64,000 nucleotides of DNA from Candidatus Altimarinota bacterium (lineage in GTDB: Bacteria; Patescibacteriota; Gracilibacteria; UBA4473): assembly GCA_018608565.1 (NCBI GenBank), contig JABAZT010000020.1, positions 60,202 through 124,201 on the forward strand, given 5' to 3'. Under the pieces are notes generated by a model. The model saw only the letters and a program-made list of their open reading frames with translations, was not told the DNA's origin and did no database searches. A program made the position numbers and the translations under genes. Each line of letters opens with the position of its first letter. Within the stretch, counting starts at the first letter, position 1. Shown here piece after piece: positions 2,080-60,322 of the stretch.

Positions 2080-4626
2080 TTACTGACTATCTAAACTCTC
2101 TACTAGCAGCTTCGCAGCAGCAGCCCGACTTAGTTTTTCTTGCGGACGAAACGTACCATCCTCAAATCCAGAAATAATACCCCGACTGTATGCCTCCTCT
2201 ACCCACGGCCTGGCCCAATCCGTCACATCCGGAAAAACCGAAGAATTTATCGGTTCAGTTGCGCTGTTATTCAGTTTTTCCGTTGGCTTCCAACCATCAG
2301 CAGCCAAAAGCACCTTTACCGCCTCAGCCCGAGTCAATCCCAAGTATGGACGAAAGGTACCATCCTCGTACCCTTTGACAACACCAGCACCAGCAAAATA
2401 ATTTACAGCCTCAGAAAAATCATTTTCTTCTACTACATCTGAAAACACCTGACTACCACCAGTTCTCTCAACCTCTCCATCTTTTCCTCCTAACCTATAC
2501 AACATTTTCAAGAAATCAGCTCGATCTACAGGACGACTCGGATGAATTTTTCCATTCGCTTCCGCCTCAAAAACTCCCTCCTCAATCAATCGAGCAAAAT
2601 AAGGATTAGCCCAATGACGAGGATCATAATCTACAAAAAATGAACGATCCGAAGATTCCGGAGTTTTTCTATATCCATATCGAACCGAAATACATCGAAA
2701 CACCGTACAAAATTCAACCTGATCCCCCATCCCAAAAGCCTGAGCCAACATTGGAGCAAACCCAACATACAACGCTCGATGAGCCTCAGAGAAAGGATGC
2801 ACTCCAATCAGTGTATCTCTTTCCGCTCGACCCAAAAAATCCCCTCCTTGCCAAACCTTATCAACCGAAAGATACTCAAACGGCATGTCCCCTACAAAAC
2901 GACCACCAAAATCACTATACGCATACGTCGCCCGCTCCAACTCCAAAATAATTCTCAATAACTGTGAAGCGGTAATCTCTCGCAACGCCAATCTCAAATC
3001 CGCCTGAGCCATCCCTGGAACAAGCAATGAATTACGCACTCCATACCGTCTCGAAATAGACCGAATTGCCGTAAGGCTTTCCTCTTCATAGTCACCACTT
3101 CTCAAAATCTGCCCAATCCGACGAGCCGCCCAAATACGAGGCAAAAATGCTGCAGCACTCGCAAACGAAGGCGAATACATATCAAACGATCTCCCAACAA
3201 AAACAGGCGTCCCCTGAGCCGATCTTCCAGGAAAAAATTCCGGCAAGACCTCCACCTCTCCTTCTCGAGTAGAGATAGAAGAGTTAACGAGCCCCTGCCT
3301 CCATTGCCCCCACTTATCCCAAAACTCTTCCGCCTCTATCAATCGAGGAGGAGCATGAAATAAACGTTGATAAAATCCTCCTGAAAAATAAGAAAGCAAC
3401 TCCAAATAGGACTCCTTCTTCGACGTAAACCCAAGAGAAACAACTGGAGCACTAAGCTCTGAAAAATCTACTGGCACATACTCATCCTGATCCGTAATAA
3501 GTAAAACCGCACGATTATCCACTCCCACAGTCCAACTCTCATCCGTAATAGATTGCAATGCCAATTCCAAATTTCCCTCAGCTAATGGCCGCATGGTATG
3601 TAAATGCTCTATTAATCCTTTTCTAAAATCATGATTATTGATCCTAAAATCAGCTGCATAGGAACGCACCGTTTTATCAAAAAATACAACCTTCACCTTC
3701 TTTTCGTCCAACCGCTCAAGTATAAAATTCACATATTCCTTCGTCCGAATCCAAGGATTCCCAGTCATTGAACCTGATGTATCTATCAAGAGGACCAACT
3801 CCTGAATATCTTTTTGAGGCCCCCAGAGCTGAAAATGTCCATAATACACAGAACCATTAGACGAATACTCCAACGTCGGATACTCAATATGAGACCAGAA
3901 AAAACGCAAATTCTGTTGCGGCTTAAAATCCGTATCAGAATACAACAATACCACCTGATTTTGATTTCTATCCATCAATCCCTCTTGTGGAAGATTCGTA
4001 AAAAAATGCCACAAAGACTTATCCGAAGTAATCGAAAAAGTCAGATCAAAAGATTTGGAAGCAATATCATCATGTAAAAAAATCTCTGAAAAGTGAAAAT
4101 CATTCACAAAATCTGCCTTCATTCTCCATTCAAGTTTTAGTTTCATGGTTTGTTCTGGTGGCAAATCCAAGAGCCGAGACTCAAGTAATTTTTCAAAAGG
4201 AGTGGCCCCCAAACGCAATAGCCGTGCATCCATACTCTTGCTCGCCTGATCAAATAAACGCTCCAGACGATTTTTGCCACTAAAAACCTCAAACGCCTCT
4301 GCCCGAGCATCGACATAAAGACCAATAGAATCCGCGTGCCCAGGCAATGGATAATAATACGTCAGCGACTCTGACTCCAAACTTGTATTCCGAAGAGTAT
4401 CTACCAATGTTACATTGATCGTCTCACTATCCAAAACTTCAATCTGAACTCGTCGTTCATCACGAACCACATTAGGATTTTGATACATAGCATCAGCCGT
4501 GGGAAAAAAGAACAGGCAAAAACTAAAAAATAAGAAGAAAGACTTCAAATACACTAATTGGCTATTGGACTTCTTAACTATTGTACTCATCCCCCCCATA
4601 GTACAAAAAAAGTATTCAAGAGGCAA
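2080..4626 (-). CDS. secreted VIT/vWA-domain protein with C-terminal SLH repeats
   Basis: 848-aa ORF. Probable start is M13 (about 4590), giving signal peptide 'MSTIVKK...FFFPTADA'. MIDAS motif 'LIDTSGSMTG'. C-terminal SLH-like repeats 'FSDV...VKGYEDGTFRP' and 'FPDV...ISGFEDGTFRP', plus a degenerate third. Confidence 0.75.
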   Translation of the reverse strand: MPLEYFFCTMGGMSTIVKKSNSQLVYLKSFFLFFSFCLFFFPTADAMYQNPNVVRDERRVQIEVLDSETINVTLVDTLRNTSLESESLTYYYPLPGHADSIGLYVDARAEAFEVFSGKNRLERLFDQASKSMDARLLRLGATPFEKLLESRLLDLPPEQTMKLKLEWRMKADFVNDFHFSEIFLHDDIASKSFDLTFSITSDKSLWHFFTNLPQEGLMDRNQNQVVLLYSDTDFKPQQNLRFFWSHIEYPTLEYSSNGSVYYGHFQLWGPQKDIQELVLLIDTSGSMTGNPWIRTKEYVNFILERLDEKKVKVVFFDKTVRSYAADFRINNHDFRKGLIEHLHTMRPLAEGNLELALQSITDESWTVGVDNRAVLLITDQDEYVPVDFSELSAPVVSLGFTSKKESYLELLSYFSGGFYQRLFHAPPRLIEAEEFWDKWGQWRQGLVNSSISTREGEVEVLPEFFPGRSAQGTPVFVGRSFDMYSPSFASAAAFLPRIWAARRIGQILRSGDYEEESLTAIRSISRRYGVRNSLLVPGMAQADLRLALREITASQLLRIILELERATYAYSDFGGRFVGDMPFEYLSVDKVWQGGDFLGRAERDTLIGVHPFSEAHRALYVGFAPMLAQAFGMGDQVEFCTVFRCISVRYGYRKTPESSDRSFFVDYDPRHWANPYFARLIEEGVFEAEANGKIHPSRPVDRADFLKMLYRLGGKDGEVERTGGSQVFSDVVEENDFSEAVNYFAGAGVVKGYEDGTFRPYLGLTRAEAVKVLLAADGWKPTEKLNNSATEPINSSVFPDVTDWARPWVEEAYSRGIISGFEDGTFRPQEKLSRAAAAKLLVESLDSQ

Positions 4627-4707: not shown

Positions 4708-6861
4708 CTACCGTCGCTTCACCGTTACTCGTTTCTGAATCTTAGAAACAATTCCTCGATCATTGATCATCTTCAACTGTACCAAATACGTTCCAGGATT
4801 TTCATAGAGATGAATAGGCTTAAACGTCTGAGCTTTTTGCCCATCTCCAAAATCCCAATGATACTCTACCGCTACTCCCTGTGAAGGAGACGCATCAAAC
4901 TGAATCTCAAGTGGCGCAAATCCAGCCTCCGGAAACATACTAAAATCAGCAACCAATGCAGGAGGTCTAACCGATATATAGGTAATAGAGGAAGATTGTT
5001 GTCCAAGCGTATCAATAACCGTAAGTTTTACAGGAAAAGTTCCAAGATTTCGAAACAAGTAAGAAATTTTTGCTCCATAGTGAATAGGGTCTTCCCCTGG
5101 AAATTCCCACACATAATCAATAATTTCACTTGTATCAGTCGCGGAACCAGATCCATCAAACTCAACCGAAAGAGGAACCGAACCAGACAACTGATTCGCT
5201 GTAATTTTGGCTCTTAGTCCGGCTTCTCCCACAATCACTCGTCGAACGGCTTCAAATTCGTCTCCATTCGAAGTTGTAATCCGTAGATGTACTACATATC
5301 GACCTGGAGTTCTATAGATCTTTGTAACTTTTTGACCAAAGTCATCCGAAATCCCATCATCATCAAAATCCCATTGCCAATCAATAGCTCCATCAACCTT
5401 CGAGGTAGAAGCATCAAACTCAACTTCAAATGGAACCCCTCCCTGTAACACATCATCCTTATCCGCAGGAGGATCCGTCACAATAATGACATCTTGAGAC
5501 TTAGCACGATCACGAATATTCACAGTTTCGGTCACTCGATGTCTCTCTCCCAGATCATTTTCTACGGTAAGAGTTACATCATACTCTCCCTCTGTTCGAA
5601 AAATACGACGAATACTAGAACCTAAAGTAGTGTCCTTTTCTCCTTCAATAAACCATTCATACTTGGTAATAACACCATTTTCTACAAATGAATTTTTTCC
5701 TGACATCACCAATACAAACGGAGCCTCTCCATCAAACCCAACCTCAGAAGTAATCTTGGCTTCAATGCTTGGACGCCCTCCTTCTACCACAATTGTTTTT
5801 TGTGTTAGTGAGTAATCTCTCTGACTTCCCGTTACTCGTAATTTCACCACATGTTCGCCAATACTACTAAAATCTCGTGAAATAATTTCGGGACTCGTTT
5901 GTTGAAACTCATAATCCCCGTCATCATCAAAATCCCATTCATAGAGTATTACTTTCCCATCAGGGTCCGTAGAATTAGAAGCTGAAAATTCAACCGAAAG
6001 CGGGGAAACCCCTTGCTCTACATTTGAAGTAATTTCTGCAAATACTCCGACATTTTCAATCACCACCTCACGCGTCGTTTCAAACACTTCTCGCTCTCCA
6101 TTAGCGTTCTGAAATTCGATCTTAGCTAGTACATCAAAAATACCATTATTCTCCCCCTTATCCATAAATCGATTCGCTACTTGATACCCATTGGCATCTA
6201 TAATTCCATCTCCATCAAAATCCCAACTCACCTGACGAACAGAGGAAAGATCCCCCCCAAATTTTGCTTTAAGTCGCTCTTCTAGATCAAAATCAATGGT
6301 AATCGGAGCTTGTAAGCCAATAACACTTGGTGGATCCGTCGCCACCAGAGAGTTATCCTGTTCCACTCGTTTCACCGTATCCGCACTCGCAATAGCAAGA
6401 TACAGACCAATAAACAAACCAAATATCAAAGCAAATATAGTCACATAAAGGACCATTTTCTTCAAAATAGGACCTCTCTTTGGAGATTCCTTTGGCAAGG
6501 TCATATATCGAAAAACATTCGAAAGCGCAAAGAAAAGGAACACCAATGACAAGAAACCAAAAAGACCACTCGTAAACTGTATCAAAACATTCTTTAGACT
6601 CGTCGCATCAATCCCAAGCAAGTCAAATAAAGGATTTGAAACATAGCCTCCAAACAAAGAGAACAATAAAATCCCATAAAAAACAAATAACAACCCAAAG
6701 ATAACCGCCAAAAAGATCCATATATATTTTATCGGACTAGTCCCAGAAGTATCAACCGCCGTAGGAATAACCCGTTCGTTTGGAACTTCATTAGATTCTG
6801 TTTCCTCTGAATCGTCCAAGAGTTCATCATTGTCTTCGTTTGGAGAAGGTAGTTTTGCCAT
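4708..6861 (-). CDS. multi-pass membrane protein with about 6 PKD-like Ig repeats
   Basis: 717 aa. Acidic N-terminus, 3-4 hydrophobic helices (residues ~45-165), then repeats with 'WDFDGDG', 'WDFDDDG', 'WQWDFDDDG', 'WEFPGE', 'WDFGDG' motifs. Confidence 0.8.
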   Translation of the reverse strand: MAKLPSPNEDNDELLDDSEETESNEVPNERVIPTAVDTSGTSPIKYIWIFLAVIFGLLFVFYGILLFSLFGGYVSNPLFDLLGIDATSLKNVLIQFTSGLFGFLSLVFLFFALSNVFRYMTLPKESPKRGPILKKMVLYVTIFALIFGLFIGLYLAIASADTVKRVEQDNSLVATDPPSVIGLQAPITIDFDLEERLKAKFGGDLSSVRQVSWDFDGDGIIDANGYQVANRFMDKGENNGIFDVLAKIEFQNANGEREVFETTREVVIENVGVFAEITSNVEQGVSPLSVEFSASNSTDPDGKVILYEWDFDDDGDYEFQQTSPEIISRDFSSIGEHVVKLRVTGSQRDYSLTQKTIVVEGGRPSIEAKITSEVGFDGEAPFVLVMSGKNSFVENGVITKYEWFIEGEKDTTLGSSIRRIFRTEGEYDVTLTVENDLGERHRVTETVNIRDRAKSQDVIIVTDPPADKDDVLQGGVPFEVEFDASTSKVDGAIDWQWDFDDDGISDDFGQKVTKIYRTPGRYVVHLRITTSNGDEFEAVRRVIVGEAGLRAKITANQLSGSVPLSVEFDGSGSATDTSEIIDYVWEFPGEDPIHYGAKISYLFRNLGTFPVKLTVIDTLGQQSSSITYISVRPPALVADFSMFPEAGFAPLEIQFDASPSQGVAVEYHWDFGDGQKAQTFKPIHLYENPGTYLVQLKMINDRGIVSKIQKRVTVKRR

Positions 6862-6919
6862 AATAGTTTTTTTTATTTGTATTTTTTAAGCCAACAGTAA
6901 AAGTATAATCCAAAGCATC

Positions 6920-9900
6920 TTATTCAGCCAATAACTCTTCGGCCGCTGGGACTTCATCCTCAACGACAGCATCATGATTTACGGTAATAGTAAGAGAATC
7001 TGAAACTTCCACAACTCCGTCACTCACCGTCAACACAACTCTGTATCGTCCTGCTTTTTCATATTGAAAAGAAACATTCTGACCATAAATCTGTCGACCA
7101 TCACCAAGATCCCATTCAAAATCAAGCGCTCTTGGATAATCAACCGGCGCTTCTCCATAAAGGAAGAAGGTGGTAGAAGAACCTCCAGCAATAGACACTG
7201 GCTCAAATTCACCAATATTTGGATCTATTCCTAGGAGAACTTTCAAAGAAACAATATTATTATCAGTACAGTTATATTGAACTGATTCATAAGACGCTAA
7301 CAAAAGTTTTCGTTCTGTTTCCAATGATTTTCGTTTATCACTGATATAATCCAATGTATCAATCTTTTTTCGTAATAAATCAAGTTGCTCATCGGCCAGC
7401 GGTTTAAGGGTTACTAGCTGAGTACATTCTGTATTGGTTTGAAATGTAGAAGAAATACTAACATCTGCCTGATCTAATACTTCTGGTGCAGAAGGATTTT
7501 CCAAAGATATAGCCGCTTCTTCTACCGAGTTAATTGAATCCAAATAATCAATACTTCCAGTCTCTGGATTAAATCGAGCAAACTTATTTATCCGAGTATC
7601 CCACACCGGCATCGTATGAGGCTGTGGTTCATATTGAGCAAGATCCTGTGGACTAATCTTCAAATCCTCTTGCTTGAGAGTTCCTTCCGGAACAATCGTA
7701 ATTCGTTGATCTCTTGATATTTCAATCAAACCATCTGAAACTGTCAGTACCAAATCATATACTCCCACAGAACCATATCGATGTACGGCATGAGGAATAA
7801 GCGCATGATTTCCATCTCCGAAGTCCCATCGATACGATAGATCATCTCCATCTAGATCACTCGCCTGAGAATAAAAACGAATAGGAGTTCCAACCTCAAC
7901 CGTATGAAATGGTAATATTCCATTGATCGCCACTTGTGGAGGAAGATTTGTATCTGTTCCAGCAGTACCTCTATAGTTTTCCGATTCGGTAATATACATA
8001 TTTACTTCTCGAGTCACCGTCTCAATATCATCCGTCACCGTAAGAGCGACCGTATACTCTCCAGGTTCTGCAAATCGATAATTCAAAAATTTACCAAAAC
8101 GTTTTCCATCAGGGAAGTCCCACTCGAAAGTAAGGTGATCTCCATCATTATCTTGCGCCTCAGCTACAAAATTAAAATTAGTATCCGTCGTCCCCGCATT
8201 TCCAGGCACAGCATGAATCGAAATCAACGGCGCTGAATTTGTCAGCCCACTATCCACCGCCAATGATGAGAGTGAACTCATTGAAGTATGTGCATTATCG
8301 TTATCTACCACATTAACTCGAAAATAATAATCAATCACTCCCGGCAATTGCTGTAGATTGAAATACGTATATGGACTTTCTGTAATTTGAGCCAAAATAA
8401 TTTGCTGATTGTGCAGTGCCTCAAACCGATACTGTACAATTTCTCCATCAACATCTCGTGCATCCGCTTCAACACGTACTCGTTGATATCCAAAGTCAGA
8501 ATCTTCATAAAATCGAACATCATCAATCTCAGGAGGAGTATTATTAACTACAACCTTAAAACTCGTTCGATCTCTTAGATTCGCATTTCTTCTATTCGAA
8601 GCAATTAATTCAACATGATACGTTCCAAGATCTTGAAAAAACTGATTAATCTGAAATTTTTCAACGGCTTTCCCGTTAACCAACCACGTTTCTCTCAAGT
8701 TATCAGTCCCACCACTATCATCCAAAGATTTAGATTCAAACTGGATCGGATCTCCTCGATTAATCTGGGTATAAGGAGTCAAAATTTGTTTATCCCCATA
8801 CGTAATATTCATAATAGCCGTCGGTTTTCCTTCGTTTCGAACATAGACAATCTTAGTCAATTCATTTGTTTCTCCTGAAAACTGATCATAGACTTTCAAC
8901 GTAACAGGGAATGCTCCCGCAACATCAAATGTATTCCGAACCCTTGGTCCATAGATCGATCCATCTTCTTGTGGGAAAACCCATTCAAATTCAGTCGCCT
9001 TTGGACTATTCCCCTGAAAATAAACTATATCTCCAGATTTAATTGAATCCAAACCAATCTGAAAATTAAGTCCTAACGTAGACACAACTTCCATATCTTG
9101 ATCAAAAACCTCAGAAGCATAGACCGTAGTTTGTTCTTTTTGAACCACCTGAAGCCCTACTTCTTTCCGACCAGCAGTTCCAAATTCATAAGTAACCACC
9201 GGACTATACGTTTCTACATACTCACCACCAAAATCCCATCGATATAGTAAATTTTCACGCAAACCATCAATATTTACACTTTCATTCGCATCAAATACAA
9301 ACTCTGCTGGTTTAAGCGGGTTAAATGTCGGACGAATTTTAAACTTAGCCACTGGAATATTCCCTTTAATAACAACCGTGATCGTATCTTCATCCACAAT
9401 ACGCAGACTATTCTTGACCTTAAGCCGAACGGTATAAGTCCCAGGCTCTTGAAATACAACTCGAATATTTTCTGAATCAAACGGATCAAAACATCCAGCC
9501 CCCCCCTCACAGGACCATTCATGACTGGCAATAGTTCCAACAATCGTACGAGAGTTATTTCCTGAAAAACGCATCGGCTCATCCACTCTTCCTTGAGTTT
9601 TCACCCCAGAGATAACGGCTTCAAGCGCGCCAACTATAACTTCTTTCGTATACGTTTTTCGTCCCCCATCTACATTTTGTGAGTTAGCTCTGATAATATA
9701 TTTACCAGACTCTCCATAAATATGAGTAAAATCTCCCCTCGATCCATCACTCGTATCGAGATTTCGAGAAGTTCCATCTCCCATATCCATTTTTACATAT
9801 CCAGGAAGCGTAAATTGTATCAAAACGCCTTTCTTCCCAGTCTCCAAAGGAACAGAAACTCCATCCCCATAATCTACTACATCATCACCACTCACTACAA

Positions 9901-10738
9901 TAGGATTGATCCTAAAGATCGAAGTAAATCCCTGACCTCCTGGTTGAACCGGATTCACAGGCACATAGCCACCACCTCCACCTCCAGCACTTGAAGTCGC
10001 AGACTCAAACAACGTAGCCCCAGTGAATCCAGACCCACTATCTATAGGAACAAATTGAGGTCCTCCCGTTGGTTGTTGGGTAAACTGTCCATGAGCAGGA
10101 GAGGTTCCATACCCTCCACCATATCCATGTGTAAGATTTACCCCTGGAGTAAATGCCGCGCCCGGAAGTCGTGCTCCCTTAGGAATAAAGGCAATATCAT
10201 TATAGTATCCATTATCTGTATAAATATCTTGTTTTTCTCCCTGCTGGTCCTTATTAGATACGGTTTTCCAGGTATTTTCAGCATTATTAGCATCATCTTT
10301 AGATTGCTGTTCTCGTTGTCCTGCATAGGTTTCGTCCGTCATCACATTTTTTATCACCGTATTTACTATCGCATAGGAAAGCAGGACAATAATAATCCCC
10401 ACAATCGCATAGATAATCATTTTTTGTGCTTTTTCTTTAGCTCCATCGTCACCTCCGGAAATAATAAGCCTAAATCCTGCAAAAATAATAACCGCCACCG
10501 CCAACACCCCAATAAAGGTTAAGACAAAATTAATCACCTTTATAATCGCCTGTCGAAGAGATGTCTCTCCGGCTAATTCTTTTCCAAATTCTCCCTCAGA
10601 AACCTCCATTGTCTCGATCAAAGACCCCGTTGGAATCTTGGCACTTTCGGTAGAAGCCTCTACCTCATCGACTAATCCTCCAAAATAAAATAATGGAGCT
10701 AACAATACAATAAAACTGAAAATTAATTTTCGCATCAA
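6920..10738 (-). CDS. giant surface protein: signal peptide + TrbC/VirB2-like (T4SS-pilin-like) 2-TM hairpin + PKD repeat array
   Basis: 1272 aa. Hairpin 'VINFVLTFIGVLAVAVIIFAGFRLIISGGDDGAKEKAQKMIIYAIVGIIIVLLSYAIVNTV', a Gly-rich linker, then at least 8 PKD-like repeats ('WDFGGE', 'WDFPDG', 'WDFGDGN', 'WDLGDG'). Confidence 0.8.
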   Translation of the reverse strand: MMRKLIFSFIVLLAPLFYFGGLVDEVEASTESAKIPTGSLIETMEVSEGEFGKELAGETSLRQAIIKVINFVLTFIGVLAVAVIIFAGFRLIISGGDDGAKEKAQKMIIYAIVGIIIVLLSYAIVNTVIKNVMTDETYAGQREQQSKDDANNAENTWKTVSNKDQQGEKQDIYTDNGYYNDIAFIPKGARLPGAAFTPGVNLTHGYGGGYGTSPAHGQFTQQPTGGPQFVPIDSGSGFTGATLFESATSSAGGGGGGYVPVNPVQPGGQGFTSIFRINPIVVSGDDVVDYGDGVSVPLETGKKGVLIQFTLPGYVKMDMGDGTSRNLDTSDGSRGDFTHIYGESGKYIIRANSQNVDGGRKTYTKEVIVGALEAVISGVKTQGRVDEPMRFSGNNSRTIVGTIASHEWSCEGGAGCFDPFDSENIRVVFQEPGTYTVRLKVKNSLRIVDEDTITVVIKGNIPVAKFKIRPTFNPLKPAEFVFDANESVNIDGLRENLLYRWDFGGEYVETYSPVVTYEFGTAGRKEVGLQVVQKEQTTVYASEVFDQDMEVVSTLGLNFQIGLDSIKSGDIVYFQGNSPKATEFEWVFPQEDGSIYGPRVRNTFDVAGAFPVTLKVYDQFSGETNELTKIVYVRNEGKPTAIMNITYGDKQILTPYTQINRGDPIQFESKSLDDSGGTDNLRETWLVNGKAVEKFQINQFFQDLGTYHVELIASNRRNANLRDRTSFKVVVNNTPPEIDDVRFYEDSDFGYQRVRVEADARDVDGEIVQYRFEALHNQQIILAQITESPYTYFNLQQLPGVIDYYFRVNVVDNDNAHTSMSSLSSLAVDSGLTNSAPLISIHAVPGNAGTTDTNFNFVAEAQDNDGDHLTFEWDFPDGKRFGKFLNYRFAEPGEYTVALTVTDDIETVTREVNMYITESENYRGTAGTDTNLPPQVAINGILPFHTVEVGTPIRFYSQASDLDGDDLSYRWDFGDGNHALIPHAVHRYGSVGVYDLVLTVSDGLIEISRDQRITIVPEGTLKQEDLKISPQDLAQYEPQPHTMPVWDTRINKFARFNPETGSIDYLDSINSVEEAAISLENPSAPEVLDQADVSISSTFQTNTECTQLVTLKPLADEQLDLLRKKIDTLDYISDKRKSLETERKLLLASYESVQYNCTDNNIVSLKVLLGIDPNIGEFEPVSIAGGSSTTFFLYGEAPVDYPRALDFEWDLGDGRQIYGQNVSFQYEKAGRYRVVLTVSDGVVEVSDSLTITVNHDAVVEDEVPAAEELLAE

Positions 10739-10745
10739 ATAAACA

Positions 10746-12182
10746 TTACGTTATATAATAAGAGGATTCCTGTTTATAAAGACTAGCCCCTCTTTCACCA
10801 GGCTTCGTCCCTCCTTCTCCATCACCTGGATCAACAGCTCGGACAATCACATTCACAATAGCAAACGCTAGGAACACAACCACCAACCCAACTACACACC
10901 AGATAATAATCTTTTTTGATTTTTCAAGCTGACCATCATCACCAAAGTGAAGAATCATCATAACTCCCGCATAAATAATCGCGATAACGGCAACTATAAC
11001 TATAAACGTTAAGAGATACCGAACCCATCCAATAACAAGTCTTTTTAAATTCGTATTAGTTGTAATACCAGCCCCCTTCCCCTTGTTGACCTCTCCCAAT
11101 TTTTCACCAGTCAACTTTCCTCCTTCTTCTAGACCAATTCCACAGAAAACAGTCTGTCCTTCACAATCCTTTTCTTCCGCAGCCTCTGTATCGACTCCTT
11201 TTATCTCTGCCGACTTATCTCTTCCATCCTCACCTTCTTTACGACCCTCCCCATCATCTTCTGATGGAGCGGCTCCTTGTCCCGCCTCATTCTGCGCAGT
11301 TCCTTTTGGTTGATATTGGTCAAAAAAACCACCAGCCGTACTCCCTTGAGGCCCACTACCATCCGGCATATTATTTCCAGTTCCAAGATCTACCCAGTTT
11401 TGAGTTTTTTGAATATGAGTACTACTCCACTCACTCTCACTTACAGAAGATCCATCTGGATTAATTTTTACACTACTACTTCCACTATACTTCAACGCAC
11501 TAGTAGGAGTTACATATCCTCCCTCATTCTCAGTTCCTGATTCATACCCCGTTCCATATTTGACTGGAACTCCATTTTCATACACAAGCTCTTCTGCTTG
11601 TACATACTCCGTTGCAGGCCTAGATCCAGCAATAGACTCTGTCTTAGAATTCGTTTTTACAGTTTCACCAGTAAATCCATCGTAATACTCACTGTCGGTT
11701 GTCTGAGTTCTGATTACATTTCCATTTTCATCCACTCTATAGGTATTATCTATCTGTTGATTCGTACTCGTTTCTTTGGTTGTCGTTGACACCGTTCCTC
11801 CATGTGTCGTCCCAGTAGCACCCTCAGGAAGCGTCGGCAACTGGCTTCTTCTTCTGATTTCCTGATTGTAGGCCTGTAATCGACTATTGATCCCCTCAAG
11901 CTCAGTTTTATATCGAGATTCAGCCTCAGTATTTCCTCGAGTTTGAGCATCACGAAGCAACTGCGTCTTGATCTCTAGTTCACTTTGATCTAGCTTCAAA
12001 AACTGCCCTAACTGAGAGTCAGACCAACTTTGCAGCTCATCAGACTGAGCCAATAGGGTCCCACCCATCAAGAGCACTAACACTAAACCAAGACGTAAAT
12101 ATCGTAATATCATCTCGTGATTATACCACAGATAAAGCTTTTTATCTAGTCTTTCCTCAATAAAATATTTAATCCAAAACAA
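10746..12182 (-). CDS. secreted G/S/T-rich protein with C-terminal TrbC/VirB2-like 2-TM hairpin
   Basis: 478-aa ORF. Likely start is M24 (about 12113), giving signal peptide 'MILRYLRLGLVLVLLMGGTLLAQS'. C-terminal 'VRYLLTFIVIVAVIAIIYAGVMMILHFGDDGQLEKSKKIIIWCVVGLVVVFLAFAIVNVI' is clearly homologous to the hairpin of the next gene. Confidence 0.7.
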   Translation of the reverse strand: MFWIKYFIEERLDKKLYLWYNHEMILRYLRLGLVLVLLMGGTLLAQSDELQSWSDSQLGQFLKLDQSELEIKTQLLRDAQTRGNTEAESRYKTELEGINSRLQAYNQEIRRRSQLPTLPEGATGTTHGGTVSTTTKETSTNQQIDNTYRVDENGNVIRTQTTDSEYYDGFTGETVKTNSKTESIAGSRPATEYVQAEELVYENGVPVKYGTGYESGTENEGGYVTPTSALKYSGSSSVKINPDGSSVSESEWSSTHIQKTQNWVDLGTGNNMPDGSGPQGSTAGGFFDQYQPKGTAQNEAGQGAAPSEDDGEGRKEGEDGRDKSAEIKGVDTEAAEEKDCEGQTVFCGIGLEEGGKLTGEKLGEVNKGKGAGITTNTNLKRLVIGWVRYLLTFIVIVAVIAIIYAGVMMILHFGDDGQLEKSKKIIIWCVVGLVVVFLAFAIVNVIVRAVDPGDGEGGTKPGERGASLYKQESSYYIT

Positions 12183-17765: not shown

Positions 17766-17841
17766 GGGCCGGTAGCTCAGTGGTTAGAGCAGGGCGCTCA
17801 TAACGCCTTTGTCGCTAGTTCAATTCTAGCTCGGCCCACCA
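17766..17841 (+). tRNA. tRNA with CAT anticodon, elongator type (Ile2-lysidine-like or Met), CCA encoded
   Basis: Manual cloverleaf, 76 nt. Acceptor GGGCCGG/TCGGCCC, D arm gctc-agtggtta-gagc, anticodon loop ctCATaa, T arm gctag-ttcaatt-ctagc. G1-C72 pair and no GGG/CCC anticodon stem, so not an initiator. Closely resembles E. coli ileX, including C4-G69 and C5-G68. Confidence 0.9.
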
Positions 17842-19481
17842 CCATCTTCTAAATCAAGGTTCAAAGTCTCATTAATACCTTTAGAATCAGCATAATCGGT
17901 TCTGACTATGTTTTTGAGCTTCCATTCGTCAGGTTTGAACCTCAACCAGAGGGTAGTAACTACTTTTTTCTTCCCAGCTGTATCGTACTCAGTACAAACA
18001 TTGACTCGATCGACAAGCAATTGCATGATCCAACGCTTTTTATCATGATCTAAATTCTTCATAAGTGTTTTTACTTTGTTTTTTGTATCAGTGATTTCCT
18101 TTACGTTAACGTGTAATTCCGAGAGGGTTTCAAGTTCTTTTTCGAGACCTTCTTGATATTCTATTTGTACTTCAATTTCCGTTTCAAGTTTTGGTGCCTG
18201 CCTTTGAAAGACTTCATCACTAATTTTTCCTTCTATCATCTTATTTTCAAGACTACATCGTTTACTTTGTAGATCTCGTAGTTTTTTCTTAGTATTGTCT
18301 AGTTGTTCTTGAAGCGTTCCTGCTTTGCTTTTTTCAATTTGTTTCCGATAATACTCTTCTACAAAAACGGATGGATCATCAAAAGCCTCTGTAATCCTCC
18401 TCCAGACGAAATCTTCTAGCGGCTTACTAGGAATTTCATTTACTTTTTGCTTTACCCCAAGATGAGTGAATGATTGTCTTCTATAGCTAGAACCTCCTTT
18501 GCTTCGCCCTGCTCCTACAAATTTTTGTGGTGGATCATAATCCATGTCATAGAGCTTTCCAGAGAGGAGGTATGACGTACTCTTCCTTCCTCCAAGGTTT
18601 TGCTTTCGTTGTTCTTGTGCAAAGGAAAACAATGTGTCAGAGATAATTTCAGGACATGCTCCGTATTCCCATTCATCCTCTGGAAGTTTATCTTTAGAGT
18701 CTGAATCCGTATAGGAAACAACATACCTTCCTAAATAGTGTGTACATTTGAGGATTGTTTCTATTTTTTCTGCGTCCCAGATCATGTTCTTTTTTGCTCT
18801 GGTGTGTTTTCCAAGAGGAATAGCCTCAGCATTAAGTTCATTCGATATCATACGTTGCCCTTTGCCTTTATAGACATAAGAATTAAAGATTCGCTCAATA
18901 ACCGCTACTTCTTCAGGAATTGGCTCTAATACGCTCCCTTTTCCCAGAGGGCTTGCCACTTTGTCGTATCCATAAGGAATACTGCTTCCAACGTAGTTTC
19001 CTGATTGGGCTGATGCGATTTTTCCTGTTTGTGTTCTACCCTTAATTAATTCTCTCTCAAATTCAGCAAGAGCTCCAAATATTTGGAATATCAACCTTCC
19101 CATTGGACCGTGGAAATCAATGTTTTCTTGAAGAGAAATAAAGCTTGTTTCGTTTTTCTTAAGCTCATCTAAGAACTGGAGAAGATGCCTGAGATTTCGG
19201 CTCATACGATCAATTTTCCATACAAGCACTGCATCTACTTTTCTAGCCTTTACGAGTTCCATCATTTTTTGATAGGCGGGACGATTTAGATCCGATCCAG
19301 AACCAGTATCTTGAAAAACCCATTCGTCTTTTGTAATAAGATTGAGTGCGGGGTTATTTTCAACGTAATCAATCAGCTTATTCTGCTGATCACCAAGACT
19401 GTAACCATCTCGTTGTTGTTCTTGCGTAGAGACTCGTATGTATATCGCTACTCTCCGTTTAGATTCATTATTTGATAACAT
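17826..19481 (-). CDS. large serine recombinase (integrase)
   Basis: 551 aa. N-terminal resolvase domain 'VAIYIRVSTQEQ...', a recombinase domain and a C-terminal coiled coil. The last 5 codons plus the stop overlap the tRNA 3' end by 16 nt. Confidence 0.9.
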   Translation of the reverse strand: MLSNNESKRRVAIYIRVSTQEQQRDGYSLGDQQNKLIDYVENNPALNLITKDEWVFQDTGSGSDLNRPAYQKMMELVKARKVDAVLVWKIDRMSRNLRHLLQFLDELKKNETSFISLQENIDFHGPMGRLIFQIFGALAEFERELIKGRTQTGKIASAQSGNYVGSSIPYGYDKVASPLGKGSVLEPIPEEVAVIERIFNSYVYKGKGQRMISNELNAEAIPLGKHTRAKKNMIWDAEKIETILKCTHYLGRYVVSYTDSDSKDKLPEDEWEYGACPEIISDTLFSFAQEQRKQNLGGRKSTSYLLSGKLYDMDYDPPQKFVGAGRSKGGSSYRRQSFTHLGVKQKVNEIPSKPLEDFVWRRITEAFDDPSVFVEEYYRKQIEKSKAGTLQEQLDNTKKKLRDLQSKRCSLENKMIEGKISDEVFQRQAPKLETEIEVQIEYQEGLEKELETLSELHVNVKEITDTKNKVKTLMKNLDHDKKRWIMQLLVDRVNVCTEYDTAGKKKVVTTLWLRFKPDEWKLKNIVRTDYADSKGINETLNLDLEDGGGPS

Positions 19482-31345: not shown

Positions 31346-33715
31346 TTATTTCTTCTTCGCCGCTTTTCGTCTTGGCTTCGCAGCCGGGGCTTCTTTGATA
31401 ATCTTCTGACAAGCCTCTAGATCCAATTCTTCAGGTTTTTCAATATCCTTTGGAATTCTTACATTCTTTTTATCATGTTTGATATAGATCCCATATGGAC
31501 CACGTAATAGACTAATTTTTTCTTCTGGCCATTCAGCCACAAAACGTTTGGCATCCGCTTCTTTTTTATCCTTCAAAAGTTCTAACGCTCTTTCAAGCGT
31601 AACACTCGATGGATCATCCCCAGGAATCTCATTTCCATCCTCATCCTCTGTTTTCTTTTTCAGAGAAGCATAGGTTTTTCCTTCTTTCACATACGGACCA
31701 AATTTCCCCAATCCAACAGAAATTTCTTCTCCTTCTGGAGATTTCCCCAATAGCTTTGGAAACTTAAACTGCTCCATCGCCACCTCAAACGTAATAGACT
31801 CAATCGTCTCACCATCTGGAATAGAAGCAAACTTTGGTTTATCTTCATCATCCTTGGTCCCAATCTGGATCATCGCCCCAAATCGTCCAAGTCGAGCAAT
31901 CACAGGTTTCCCAGACTTAGGATCTGTTCCCAACTCTCGTTGTCCACTCGCAGTAGATCTATCTATACCACCAGATTCAACCACAAGGGAGTGAAATCCT
32001 TTATAAAAATCCCCAATCATCTTATTCCACTTTGTTTTTCCTTCTGCAATATTATCAAACTCTTCTTCCACTTTCCGTGTAAATCCATAATCCACAACTT
32101 CAGCAAAATGCTCAACCAAGAAATCATTTACAATCGATCCCGTATCGGTTGGAAAAAGCTTATTTTTCTCCGCTCCAAAATTTTCCTTCACCGTTTCTTC
32201 CGAAATAGTATCCGGAACCAACGTCAATGTTCGCACATCTCGCTTCTCCGCATCTTTTCCTCGTTTTTCGACATAACCTCTATCTTGAACCGTAGAGATC
32301 GTAGGCGCGTACGTAGATGGACGACCAATCCCTCGTTTTTCCAGTTCTTTTACAAGACTCGCCTCCGTATATCTGGCAGGAGGCCGAGCATAGGTTTCTC
32401 GAGATACCATTTCTGTTAGATCCAATTTTTGACCTTCGTTCAATGGCGGAAGCATTTTTTCTTCTCCCTTTCCATCCTCCTCTTCCTCTTCATCATCATT
32501 TCCTTCTAGATACACCTTGAGAAATCCATCAAATTTCAACACTTCTCCTTGTGCCACTAGATTTTCCTCAACCGTAGAGATACCAATAGTCGCCACTGTT
32601 TTCTCCAGCTTTGCCTGAGCCATCTGTGACGCAATCGCTCGCTTCCAAATAAGTTCATAGAGTCGTTGATGATTTCGTTCTCCATCCACCGCCGATTTTG
32701 CAAAATCAGTAGGTCGGATCGCTTCATGTGCTTCTTGTGCATCTCCTGACTTCGTCTTATATTTTCTAATTTCGAGATACTCCGATCCATAGCTTTTCTC
32801 TATCTCTATTTTGGCTTGATCCAGTGCCGTATCCGAAAGATTTACCGAATCAGTTCTCATATAGGTAATGTGACCTCCTTCATACAGTTTCTGTGCCACG
32901 CTCATGGTTTGCTTTACCGAAAATCCAAGCTTACGAGACGCTTCTTGTTGGAGCGTAGAAGTCGTAAACGGAGCCGCAGGACTCTTCTTTGCTGGTTTCG
33001 TCTCCAGTGCATCTACCGTAAAATCAGCCCCCACCACACTCTCAAGCCAAGACTTAGCCGTATCATAATTATCAAATTTTTTCGGAAGTTCCGCTTTCAG
33101 TATTACCTTCTTCCCAAGATCAAAATGAGCCACAACCTTAAAACTAGAAACACGATCAAATCCTTGGATTTCTCGTTCTCGTTCTACGATCAGACGAACC
33201 GTCACAGACTGAACTCGTCCAGCCGAGAGACCTCCTTTTATCTTCTGCCAGAGCACCGGACTGAGCTCATATCCAACCAGTCGATCCAACACTCGTCGAG
33301 CTTGCTGTGCATCCACCATATCCATATCTACAAGACCAGGATTTTTGATCGCATCCGTCACTCCTTTTTTGGTTACCTCACGATAGACAATTCGTGCCGT
33401 CTTCTTTTCATCCAATTTCAAAGCCTTACATAGGTGCCACGCAATGGCTTCTCCTTCACGATCGGGATCTGCTGCGAGCCATACTTTATCTACCTTTTTT
33501 GCGGCAGCCTTGAGTTCATTGACGACTTTCTTCTTATCGTCAGTAACGACATAAGTAGGTTCAAATCCATTTTCAATATCGATCGACATATCTTTCTTCG
33601 GAAGATCCCGAATATGCCCATAACTAGATTTCACAATATAGTCCTTCCCAAGATATTTTTCCAACGTCTTAGCCTTAGCCGGAGACTCCACGATAACGAG
33701 ATTTTTTGCACTCAT
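31346..33715 (-). CDS. topA: DNA topoisomerase I
   Basis: 789 aa. 'LVIVESPAKAKTLEKYLG...SSYGHIRDLP' and 'ITYMRTDS'. C-terminal Cys-less repeats ('LGRFGAMIQIG', 'GKFGPYVKEG', 'GPYGIYIKH') and a Lys-rich tail. Confidence 0.95.
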   Translation of the reverse strand: MSAKNLVIVESPAKAKTLEKYLGKDYIVKSSYGHIRDLPKKDMSIDIENGFEPTYVVTDDKKKVVNELKAAAKKVDKVWLAADPDREGEAIAWHLCKALKLDEKKTARIVYREVTKKGVTDAIKNPGLVDMDMVDAQQARRVLDRLVGYELSPVLWQKIKGGLSAGRVQSVTVRLIVEREREIQGFDRVSSFKVVAHFDLGKKVILKAELPKKFDNYDTAKSWLESVVGADFTVDALETKPAKKSPAAPFTTSTLQQEASRKLGFSVKQTMSVAQKLYEGGHITYMRTDSVNLSDTALDQAKIEIEKSYGSEYLEIRKYKTKSGDAQEAHEAIRPTDFAKSAVDGERNHQRLYELIWKRAIASQMAQAKLEKTVATIGISTVEENLVAQGEVLKFDGFLKVYLEGNDDEEEEEDGKGEEKMLPPLNEGQKLDLTEMVSRETYARPPARYTEASLVKELEKRGIGRPSTYAPTISTVQDRGYVEKRGKDAEKRDVRTLTLVPDTISEETVKENFGAEKNKLFPTDTGSIVNDFLVEHFAEVVDYGFTRKVEEEFDNIAEGKTKWNKMIGDFYKGFHSLVVESGGIDRSTASGQRELGTDPKSGKPVIARLGRFGAMIQIGTKDDEDKPKFASIPDGETIESITFEVAMEQFKFPKLLGKSPEGEEISVGLGKFGPYVKEGKTYASLKKKTEDEDGNEIPGDDPSSVTLERALELLKDKKEADAKRFVAEWPEEKISLLRGPYGIYIKHDKKNVRIPKDIEKPEELDLEACQKIIKEAPAAKPRRKAAKKK

Positions 33716-34895: not shown

Positions 34896-35023
34896 GACTT
34901 CGTGTTGATCTCGACCTACTCTCCCAGGATAACTCCAAGTACCATCGGCGCTAGCGGGCTTAACTTCTGTGTTCGGGATGAGAACAGGTGTACCCCCACT
35001 GCTACTAAGATCAACACGAAGCC
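34896..35023 (-). rRNA. rrf: 5S rRNA (ends approximate; includes an extended terminal helix)
   Basis: The reverse complement contains '...ccgaacacagaagttaagcccgctagcgccgatggtacttgg...cctgggagagtaggtcg...'. Terminal helix is 'cttcgtgttgatc/gatcaacacgaag'. Confidence 0.85.
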
Positions 35024-35171: not shown

Positions 35172-38056
<2,885 letters not shown>

Positions 38057-60144: not shown

Positions 60145-60322
60145 GTGTACTTAAATAGTTGGTAAGAGCCGACACAAACTAATCGTTTTTAATCTGAAGT
60201 CAATATTCGTAATTAGATTCTATTTAAATAGGCCTTTAAACAAATCAAATATAAGTCGCCCAATATTACAGATACCCATAAACTAAACACCAGTAATTAC
60301 AACTCCTCCCTCATGTCAAAAT

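Follow-up and report, generated by a model that had tools for sequence, protein, structure and literature searches.

Pilin-type membrane hairpins joined to PKD-repeat arrays in a conserved gene cassette of a Candidatus Altimarinota bacterium

The A-B-C-D gene cassette

The stretch of DNA analyzed here, below called the window, comprises 64,000 nucleotides (nt) of the genome of an uncultured, ultra-small Candidatus Altimarinota bacterium (Patescibacteriota; Gracilibacteria), positions 60,202 to 124,201 of contig JABAZT010000020.1 in assembly GCA_018608565.1. Its main subject is a cassette of four genes, named gene A (10746-12182), gene B (6920-10738), gene C (4708-6861), and gene D (2080-4626), which are separated by spacers of 7 nt (A-B), 58 nt (B-C), and about 80 nt (C-D). 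All four, and all cassette features given below, lie on the minus strand. Genes A and B encode transmembrane (TM) hairpins of a pilin family of type IV secretion systems (T4SS), and gene C probably encodes a third; B and C also encode long arrays of PKD/immunoglobulin (Ig)-like repeats. An initial annotation of the window had placed A and B side by side on the same strand, which is correct, at a distance of 8 nt, which becomes 7 nt when counted from stop to start.

Gene A has an open reading frame (ORF) of 478 amino acids (aa) from a TTG codon at 12182 and of 455 aa from an ATG codon at 12113. The ATG is most likely the translation start, since the predicted signal peptide, a signal-like segment from M24, begins there. 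The C-terminal hairpin after a low-complexity ectodomain, as initially described, is retained in this reading, and the length of 478 aa is likely to be replaced by 455 aa. The gene thus delimited (10746..12113) encodes a pilin-family protein (PF18895) with an expanded N-terminal ectodomain. It is composed of a predicted Sec signal peptide MILRYLRLGLVLVLLMGGTLLAQS (12042..12113; hydropathy and charge pattern), the ectodomain (11049..12041), and a VirB2-like hairpin at residues 379-450 (10833..11048; PF18895 and BLASTP), followed by a 28-aa tail. The ectodomain of about 330 aa starts with a helical part and continues as low-complexity sequence rich in G (13%), E (11%), T (11%), and S (9%); a Pfam scan of it found no domain, and the homologous protein P0014 resembles part of it. 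A promoter-like site (TAGATA, 17 nt, TG-TATAAT; 12120..12148), identified by its match to the consensus, ends 7 nt before the ATG, and sites of this kind are no more numerous in the region than expected from shuffled sequence. The position of the TG-extended -10 box, only 7 nt upstream of the ATG, suggests a leaderless or very short-leader mRNA.

The 1272-aa product of gene B (6920..10738) begins with a predicted signal peptide MRKLIFSFIVLLAPLFYFGGLVDEVEA (10655..10735), recognized by hydropathy and modeled by AlphaFold2 (AF2) as a helix at residues 2-18. After a short acidic stretch comes the VirB2-like hairpin at residues 59-136 (10331..10564; PF18895 and AF2), in which two strong TM helices are connected by the loop SGGDDGAKEKAQK. 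A low-complexity G/T/Q/P-rich linker (residues 137-313; 9800..10330), which had no match in a Pfam scan, leads to an array of approximately nine PKD/Ig-like units (residues 314-1256; 6971..9799) with a non-PKD insert at residues 1019-1174 (7217-7684). The Pfam family PKD_4 covers seven stretches in gene B (E 8.7e-65) and five in gene C (E 3.1e-60), and an iterated local hidden Markov model (HMM) detects nine Ig-like units in B, two of them weak, and six in C, one of them weak. The number of units in B agrees with the initial description of a hairpin that follows a signal peptide and precedes at least eight PKD repeats.

Gene C (4708..6861) encodes a 717-aa protein with a predicted acidic cytoplasmic N-terminus and a first TM helix, TM1, at residues 44-72 (6646..6732), which is probably an uncleaved signal-anchor, as judged by hydropathy and by an AF2 helix with a predicted local distance difference test (pLDDT) value of about 90. 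TM1 is followed by a short loop (SNPLF..LGI), a probable third, divergent pilin-like hairpin at residues 80-164 (6370..6624; hhalign, controls, and AF2), and a PKD/Ig array of five to six units (residues 175-717; 4711..6339; Pfam and local HMM); the first unit, modeled by AF2, retrieves PKD/Ig folds in a Foldseek search. The loop between TM1 and the hairpin, which would be external (6625-6645, residues ~73-79), contains the near-invariant motif SNPLFE(T)LGI. Its residues N49, P50, L51, and F52 are invariant in 17 sequences (alignment A4), and the motif exceeds the PKD units in conservation. Gene C is the most conserved marker of the cassette. The PKD/Ig repeats of B and C are predicted to lie outside the cell.

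Finally, gene D (2080..4626) encodes an 848-aa protein, predicted to be secreted, with a VWA domain and three C-terminal SLH repeats. Pfam identifies VWA_2 (E 9.3e-9), VWA, and SLH in three stretches (E 4e-29), and the metal ion-dependent adhesion site (MIDAS) motif DTSGS is intact in the VWA domain at residue 282.

The membrane hairpins

The homology of the A and B hairpins, first noticed in the initial annotation, is supported by BLASTP: residues 45-132 of B and residues 364-450 of A are 41% identical over 88 aa (composition-corrected E 2e-14), a similarity far beyond that of generic TM segments. Both hairpins also match an HMM of the pilin families, as had been anticipated, since they score 30.9 bits (B, residues 59-127) and 35.9 bits (A, residues 386-446) with PF18895 (T4SS_pilin), whose cut-off is 26.6. 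The scores with the TrbC/VirB2 family PF04956 (14.5 bits for B and 21.8 bits for A) are under its cut-off of 27.9, and those with the NCBIfam model Mbov_0395, a "pilin-like conjugal transfer protein", are also weak and under the cut-off. PF18895 matches all 32 related hairpins, and PF04956 matches 17 of the 32, with a best E of 7.4e-9.

By hydropathy, the products of genes A and B each consist of an N-terminal signal-like segment and two strong TM helices. Together with the charges and the AF2 models, this agrees with the layout of PF18895 proteins, in which a signal peptide precedes a pair of TM helices with a short and charged connecting loop. The usual size of these proteins, which stand alone at about 100-170 aa, is greatly exceeded by A (455-478 aa), B (1272 aa), and C (717 aa). 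In the AF2 model of the gene B N-terminus, the helices span residues 58-92 and 97-147 (pLDDT 77-88). A-type and B-type hairpins form separate clusters, each spanning genera, and the A-type hairpins cluster with the last module of the triple-hairpin proteins considered below; the alignment underlying both groupings is short and their support is modest.

The third gene had been described as encoding a TM segment and PKD repeats, which is correct but incomplete, as it probably carries its own divergent pilin-like hairpin. Alignment of 19 gene C segments with the 32 hairpins by hhalign gave a probability of 95% and E 3.6e-8, with 81 columns in register. The score of the TM2-loop-TM3 region of gene C was 33.7, compared to 18 for the reversed sequence and 13.4 +/- 2.9 (maximum 22.2) for block-shuffled sequences. 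Conversely, an HMM built from gene C alone matches, in other genomes, the hairpins of B proteins as well as module three of triple-hairpin proteins; the match of gene C segments to PF18895 itself is weak and was seen in three of 19 cases (best E 0.002). The AF2 model of the gene C N-terminus (mean pLDDT 83) places a 7-aa loop between helices of 36 and 31 aa, and its hairpin geometry is the same as that of the gene B model. A Foldseek search with this model gave a match for the Ig domain only.

Relatives and genome context

The closest homologue of gene B, P0006, is 59% identical and comes from a metagenomic ENA contig with the same neighborhood: a divergent NUDIX gene, a 410-aa pilin protein, a 1243-aa pilin-PKD protein, a 710-aa PKD protein, and an 836-aa VWA-SLH protein. 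The same four genes are present in locus L001, where B is 59% and C is 69% identical to the window proteins, and the layout of gene B is shared by homologues P0006-P0012. Hairpin matches were found in all 40 related genomes considered, and in at least 26 of the 40 a hairpin is part of a long ORF (at least 500 aa, the longest 3635 aa), so that the fusion expected to recur in relatives does so.

Among 20 loci that were chosen for hairpins in long ORFs, which biases the counts upwards, an A-type gene is directly upstream in 18 and a B-type gene is found in 19; 17 contain a C-type gene that has the conserved TM region, and six contain gene D. Gene D is syntenic in L001, L042, L052, L053, L060, and L061, and is located nearby in L056. 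When loci were picked by gene C alone, B was directly upstream in four of seven, with two triple-hairpin genes replacing A. Gene C is present in 11 of 16 sampled genomes of the same class, and none was found in about 284 genomes of other Patescibacteria classes. Thus conservation of A, B, and C extends over the class, and the VWA-SLH gene D is an addition seen in closer relatives.

The lengths of the orthologues vary widely: those of A, which carry the hairpin at the very C-terminus, have 149-957 aa, and those of B, which carry it at residues ~60-240, have 540-3627 aa. The hairpins retain 40-55% identity across genera, and the ectodomains are far more variable; in one 3627-aa B protein the pilin hairpin is the sole recognizable domain, and no Pfam domain was found in the N-terminal parts of the A orthologues. 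Since gene A of several relatives is an ordinary pilin of 149-200 aa, the window protein has the normal layout of its family with a long N-terminal insert. The hairpins do lie at opposite ends of A and B, as the initial annotation stated, but the oddity of this arrangement was overstated, the C-terminal hairpin being the canonical pilin layout.

Gene B is split in L053 (7108-10599), L054 (7225-9624), and L061 (6823-10329), where the distal PKD array is a separate gene and the hairpin gene retains about 400-500 aa after the hairpin. The separate distal protein (B2) of these three relatives comes with a cleavable signal peptide of its own but lacks a membrane anchor, and so it would need to bind partners to stay on the cell. 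A C-terminal motif, (I/V)PDWLK, is conserved in several giant pilin-PKD homologues (P0009-P0011) and in neighboring PKD proteins of more distant relatives (L048:7385-9595 and L059:6466-8799); in P0009-P0011 it is preceded by a C-terminal TM helix and a charged tail. The motif is absent from the window proteins.

On a larger scale, a profile of the B-type N-terminus, run against 1.84 billion proteins, matched 67,986 representative proteins at E <=1e-3. The highest scores belong to poly-hairpin proteins, such as P0015 (820 aa, eight modules) and P0045 (1147 aa, 11 modules), and the profile also matches single-hairpin giants of 1228-2070 aa. Proteins in which such hairpins are fused with one another or with large ectodomains thus occur commonly in nature. 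A tblastn search with the gene A hairpin against 72,556 plasmids gave no match, and a scan of genome contigs with the whole gene B protein gave no confirmed relative.

The genome that contains the cassette has a size of 1.66 Mb in 43 contigs and is about 99% complete; the window belongs to a contig of 159 kb. It contains 16 PF18895 matches. Four genes for small free pilins (138-156 aa) form an array on contig C34 (14078-21498), beside genes for a RecG-like helicase and UvrA, and the free pilins of the whole genome range from 138 to 167 aa. The B hairpin is 65% identical to a free 139-aa pilin of this array (C34:15585-15800). The position of the array beside recG agrees with the reported co-localization of T4SS components with recG in the Candidate Phyla Radiation (CPR) (Quinonero-Coronel et al. 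2025, PMC12102498). Two adjacent genes on contig C38 (26759-28817) encode proteins of 349 and 351 aa with three to four tandem pilin hairpins each. In other families of the class (L045, L058, and L062-L065), a triple-hairpin pair of this kind is directly upstream of the B-C cassette, and in the genome studied here it forms a separate locus. Contig C2 carries two further hairpin genes, but it cannot be counted as a second cassette, as gene C is absent there and is single-copy in the genome.

The initial annotation had reported no T4SS ATPase in the window, and VirB4, VirD4, and TrbL have no match on the whole window contig. A search of the genome found no match to PF03135 or TrbL, and identified a VirB4-like ATPase on contig C30 (PF19044, 106 bits) and coupling-protein-like ATPases on contigs C28 and C9. 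The cassette and VirB4 are both present in all five complete or near-complete relatives. The VirB4 orthologue (56-69% identical) is either on a contig other than that of the cassette or separated from it by distances between about 100 kb and several hundred kb. Genetic linkage of the cassette to a T4SS was rejected, as in this genome and in the five relatives virB4 is never close to it.

Other features of the window bear on the affiliation and organization of the genome. Topoisomerase I (31346-33715) is closest to metagenome-assembled genomes (MAGs) named Candidatus Gracilibacteria (69%) and Candidatus Peribacteria (68%); outside the CPR, its similarity to Chlorobiota, Ignavibacteriota, and Bacteroidota MAGs (53-57%) is on par with that to some Saccharibacteria (53-54%). 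A large serine recombinase gene (Resolvase and Recombinase domains, 551 aa, 17826-19481, minus strand) slightly overlaps a tRNA-Met gene (17766-17841, plus strand), and this junction may be the edge of an integrated element. The genes for 23S rRNA (35175-38051) and 5S rRNA (34903-35015) are on the minus strand; since the window contains no 16S rRNA gene, the rRNA genes appear to be unlinked.

A possible surface complex and its relation to known systems

The domain content and the conservation of the cassette suggest a role in attachment. It seems moderately probable to us that its products form a heteromeric surface complex for attachment that is inserted by Sec, rooted by the hairpins, and built by reuse of T4SS pilin modules. 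Genes A, B, C, and D would then constitute one operon for a cell-surface adhesion complex, whose membrane core would be made of three paralogous VirB2/TrbC-type pilin hairpins. Each hairpin would cross the membrane out-in-out, with the charged loop (GDDG..EK.KK) in the cytoplasm, where the loop of VirB2-type pilins resides; this topology is consistent with the presence of a signal-like segment, two TM helices, and a loop rich in K and R. Given a cytoplasmic loop, the fusions at the N-terminus (A) and at the C-terminus (B and C) would all end up outside the cell.

Such hairpins would most likely pack side by side, probably also with the free and triple-hairpin pilins, and together form a hetero-oligomeric root; the flexible region of A and the PKD/Ig arrays of the other two proteins would project from it. 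The existence of natural poly-hairpin proteins with up to 11 modules indicates that hairpins can work side by side. The SLH repeats of gene D would bind a wall polymer, and its metal-dependent VWA site would be offered to the arrays or to the target. The hairpins would thus provide specific lateral assembly, and the PKD, VWA, and SLH parts would provide reach, binding, and wall tethering, with attachment to a host cell or particle as the likely function. A bolder version appears doubtful, in which the hairpins of A, B, and C co-polymerize with the free pilins and the triple-hairpin pair, and the remote VirB4-like ATPase helps to make a single heteromeric filament or stalk of VirB2 type. If true, it would mean that a filament surface carries giant PKD arrays, that these are the first modular T4SS-type pilins, and that the "pilin arrays" of Patescibacteria are the parts list of a single mixed structure, not interchangeable variants.

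Several observations weigh against a complex built from pilin modules. When profiles of alignments A1 and A2, both of hairpins, were searched against PDB sequences, no match was significant; a TrbC/VirB2 chain had E 5.1. A Foldseek search with the AF2 model of the gene B N-terminus gave only generic helical hairpins at E > 1, a result that does not discriminate, since a hairpin of helices will match little else. As neither the structure nor the PDB search yielded a VirB2-type pilin, it is the Pfam profiles that link the hairpins to conjugative pilins. Profile-profile scores, as used for gene C, can be inflated by TM composition, though the reversed and shuffled controls argue otherwise here. 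Gene C occurs without B in three of the seven loci picked by gene C, and the loci selected for long ORFs overstate the frequency of the cassette.

The proteins could instead be true pilus subunits, that is, modular minor pilins whose hairpins are extracted from the membrane and polymerized with the free pilins by the VirB4-like ATPase, so that the PKD arrays would be displayed on the outer surface or at the tip of a conjugative-type pilus. We regard this as unlikely, even though the genome has the VirB4-like ATPase, two coupling-protein-like ATPases, and the four-gene array of free pilins, one of them similar in sequence to the B hairpin, and even though VirB4 accompanies the cassette in each of the five relatives checked. 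Both termini of the pilin are on the pilus exterior in F- and T-pilus structures, and fusions at either end are topologically compatible with a pilus. However, the cassette is never near virB4, the extra N-terminal TM helix and cytoplasmic tail of gene C would resist extraction, and arrays of 1100-3500 aa on every subunit are sterically hard to accommodate, which would make the fused proteins rare or tip subunits at best. Nor is a visualized pilus of this type shown in the Patescibacteria pilin-array and Gracilibacteria papers on the lineage. Rather improbable is a role of the B hairpin as a cleavable carrier, cut just outside its second helix, TM2, into a pilin of ordinary size and a free PKD protein, the fusion merely ensuring co-expression and co-localization. 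Such cleavage would agree with the separate, secreted PKD proteins of the split loci, with the ends of the free pilins and gene A at 5-28 aa past TM2, where the extension of B begins, and with the small residues (..AG/..AGS then GGDD) shortly after TM2 in many B orthologues. On the other hand, the split loci are not divided at the hairpin boundary, the window B protein has no obvious small-x-small site directly after TM2 (KNVMTDETYAG), and the cassette contains no protease gene.

Slightly less probable still is that the hairpin is a plain two-pass membrane anchor of three independent adhesins, with neither assembly nor a link to T4SS pilins. The distance to the T4SS genes, the typical adhesin modules of the ectodomains, and the lack of anything pilin-specific in the structure searches would all be explained in this way. 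But an identity of 40-55% across genera is seldom retained by plain anchors whose cargo is replaced completely, and the conservation of the hairpin next to a variable ectodomain fits a specific assembly role better. Moreover, the fixed A-B-C order, the distinct A and B hairpin clades, the unanchored B2 proteins, and the poly-hairpin fusions point to a joint function. As for an assembly or frameshift artefact or a chance TM similarity, its probability is negligible: the BLASTP match of A and B is highly significant, their frames in the window are uninterrupted, and the same fusion, present in at least 26 of the 40 related genomes, occurs in independent ENA, Logan, JGI, and NCBI assemblies, which rules out an artefact of either kind.

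VirB2-like pilin arrays are essential in Southlakia epibionticum, the sole genetically tractable Patescibacterium (PMC10633639, PMC12857230), and natural fusions are informative about the structure that they build. The fusions described here would fix the topology, with both ends of the hairpin outside the cell, and they indicate which proteins may act together, namely A, B, C, and D and, in some relatives, the unanchored B2 proteins. Throughout this class of ultra-small bacteria, which probably depend on hosts, the hairpin could be a general module for the rooting or assembly of adhesin arrays of very large size. The three hairpins, the two PKD arrays, and the VWA-SLH partner are concrete targets for the study of cell attachment.

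The cassette can be compared with several known systems. In Patescibacteria, 441 arrays of two to 11 small stand-alone pilins, usually beside virB4, have been cataloged (Wang et al. 2023, PMC10633639; Quinonero-Coronel et al. 2025, PMC12102498). The cassette shares with them the match to PF18895 and the weaker one to PF04956, tandem paralogs of low identity, and a monoderm CPR genome with VirB4-like and coupling-protein-like ATPases. It differs in the hairpin proteins, which measure 455-1272 aa in the window, reach 3627 aa in relatives, and include PKD arrays, in the constant order of the genes (A-B-C, with or without D), in the large distance to virB4, and in the restriction to one class; neither of the two papers mentions hairpins fused to PKD giants or such an operon. 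VirB2, TrbC, and TraA of Gram-negative T4SS likewise combine a signal peptide with a two-helix hairpin and a short charged loop. By contrast, the window copies are under the PF04956 cut-off, are neither small nor located beside virB genes, have no significant sequence or fold match to solved pilins in the PDB profile and Foldseek searches, and belong to a monoderm organism. Modular type IV pilins, for instance PilB and PilC of Streptococcus sanguinis, carry an extra adhesin module. The principle of a pilin module that is covalently joined to an adhesion domain is common to both, as an analogy only, since the pilin fold and the machinery of type IV pili are unrelated to those of T4SS pilins.

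Within the same CPR super-lineage, Gracilibacteria and Absconditabacteria such as Vampirococcus lugosii have giant membrane-associated surface proteins of PKD, VWA, and integrin type that were proposed to act in host attachment (PMC8080830). Large PKD/VWA surface proteins are common to these bacteria and the one studied here, and no pilin-type hairpin or operon of this kind is reported in that paper; pilin-PKD fusions or such an operon are not mentioned in the Peribacteria genome paper or the Gracilibacteria metaproteogenomics paper either. Pam pili, CPR-specific surface filaments of Ig-like domains joined by donor-strand exchange (PMC13278184), resemble the cassette as a CPR surface structure with Ig-like domains, but differ in their assembly and lack a VirB2-like hairpin. 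A relation to them was rejected, as the NCBIfam PamR matches are insignificant (E 7e-4 to 3e-3, cut-off 300 bits) and come from the PKD regions. The name given by NCBI to gene C homologues is only "PKD domain-containing protein", and the pilin connection is thus invisible to routine annotation. The VirB2-like pilins of the CPR were already known, and here they are modules of fusion proteins in a conserved, putative adhesin operon; what is new is the probable third hairpin in gene C, the A-B-C-D variant, the split form of gene B, and the restriction of gene C to one class.

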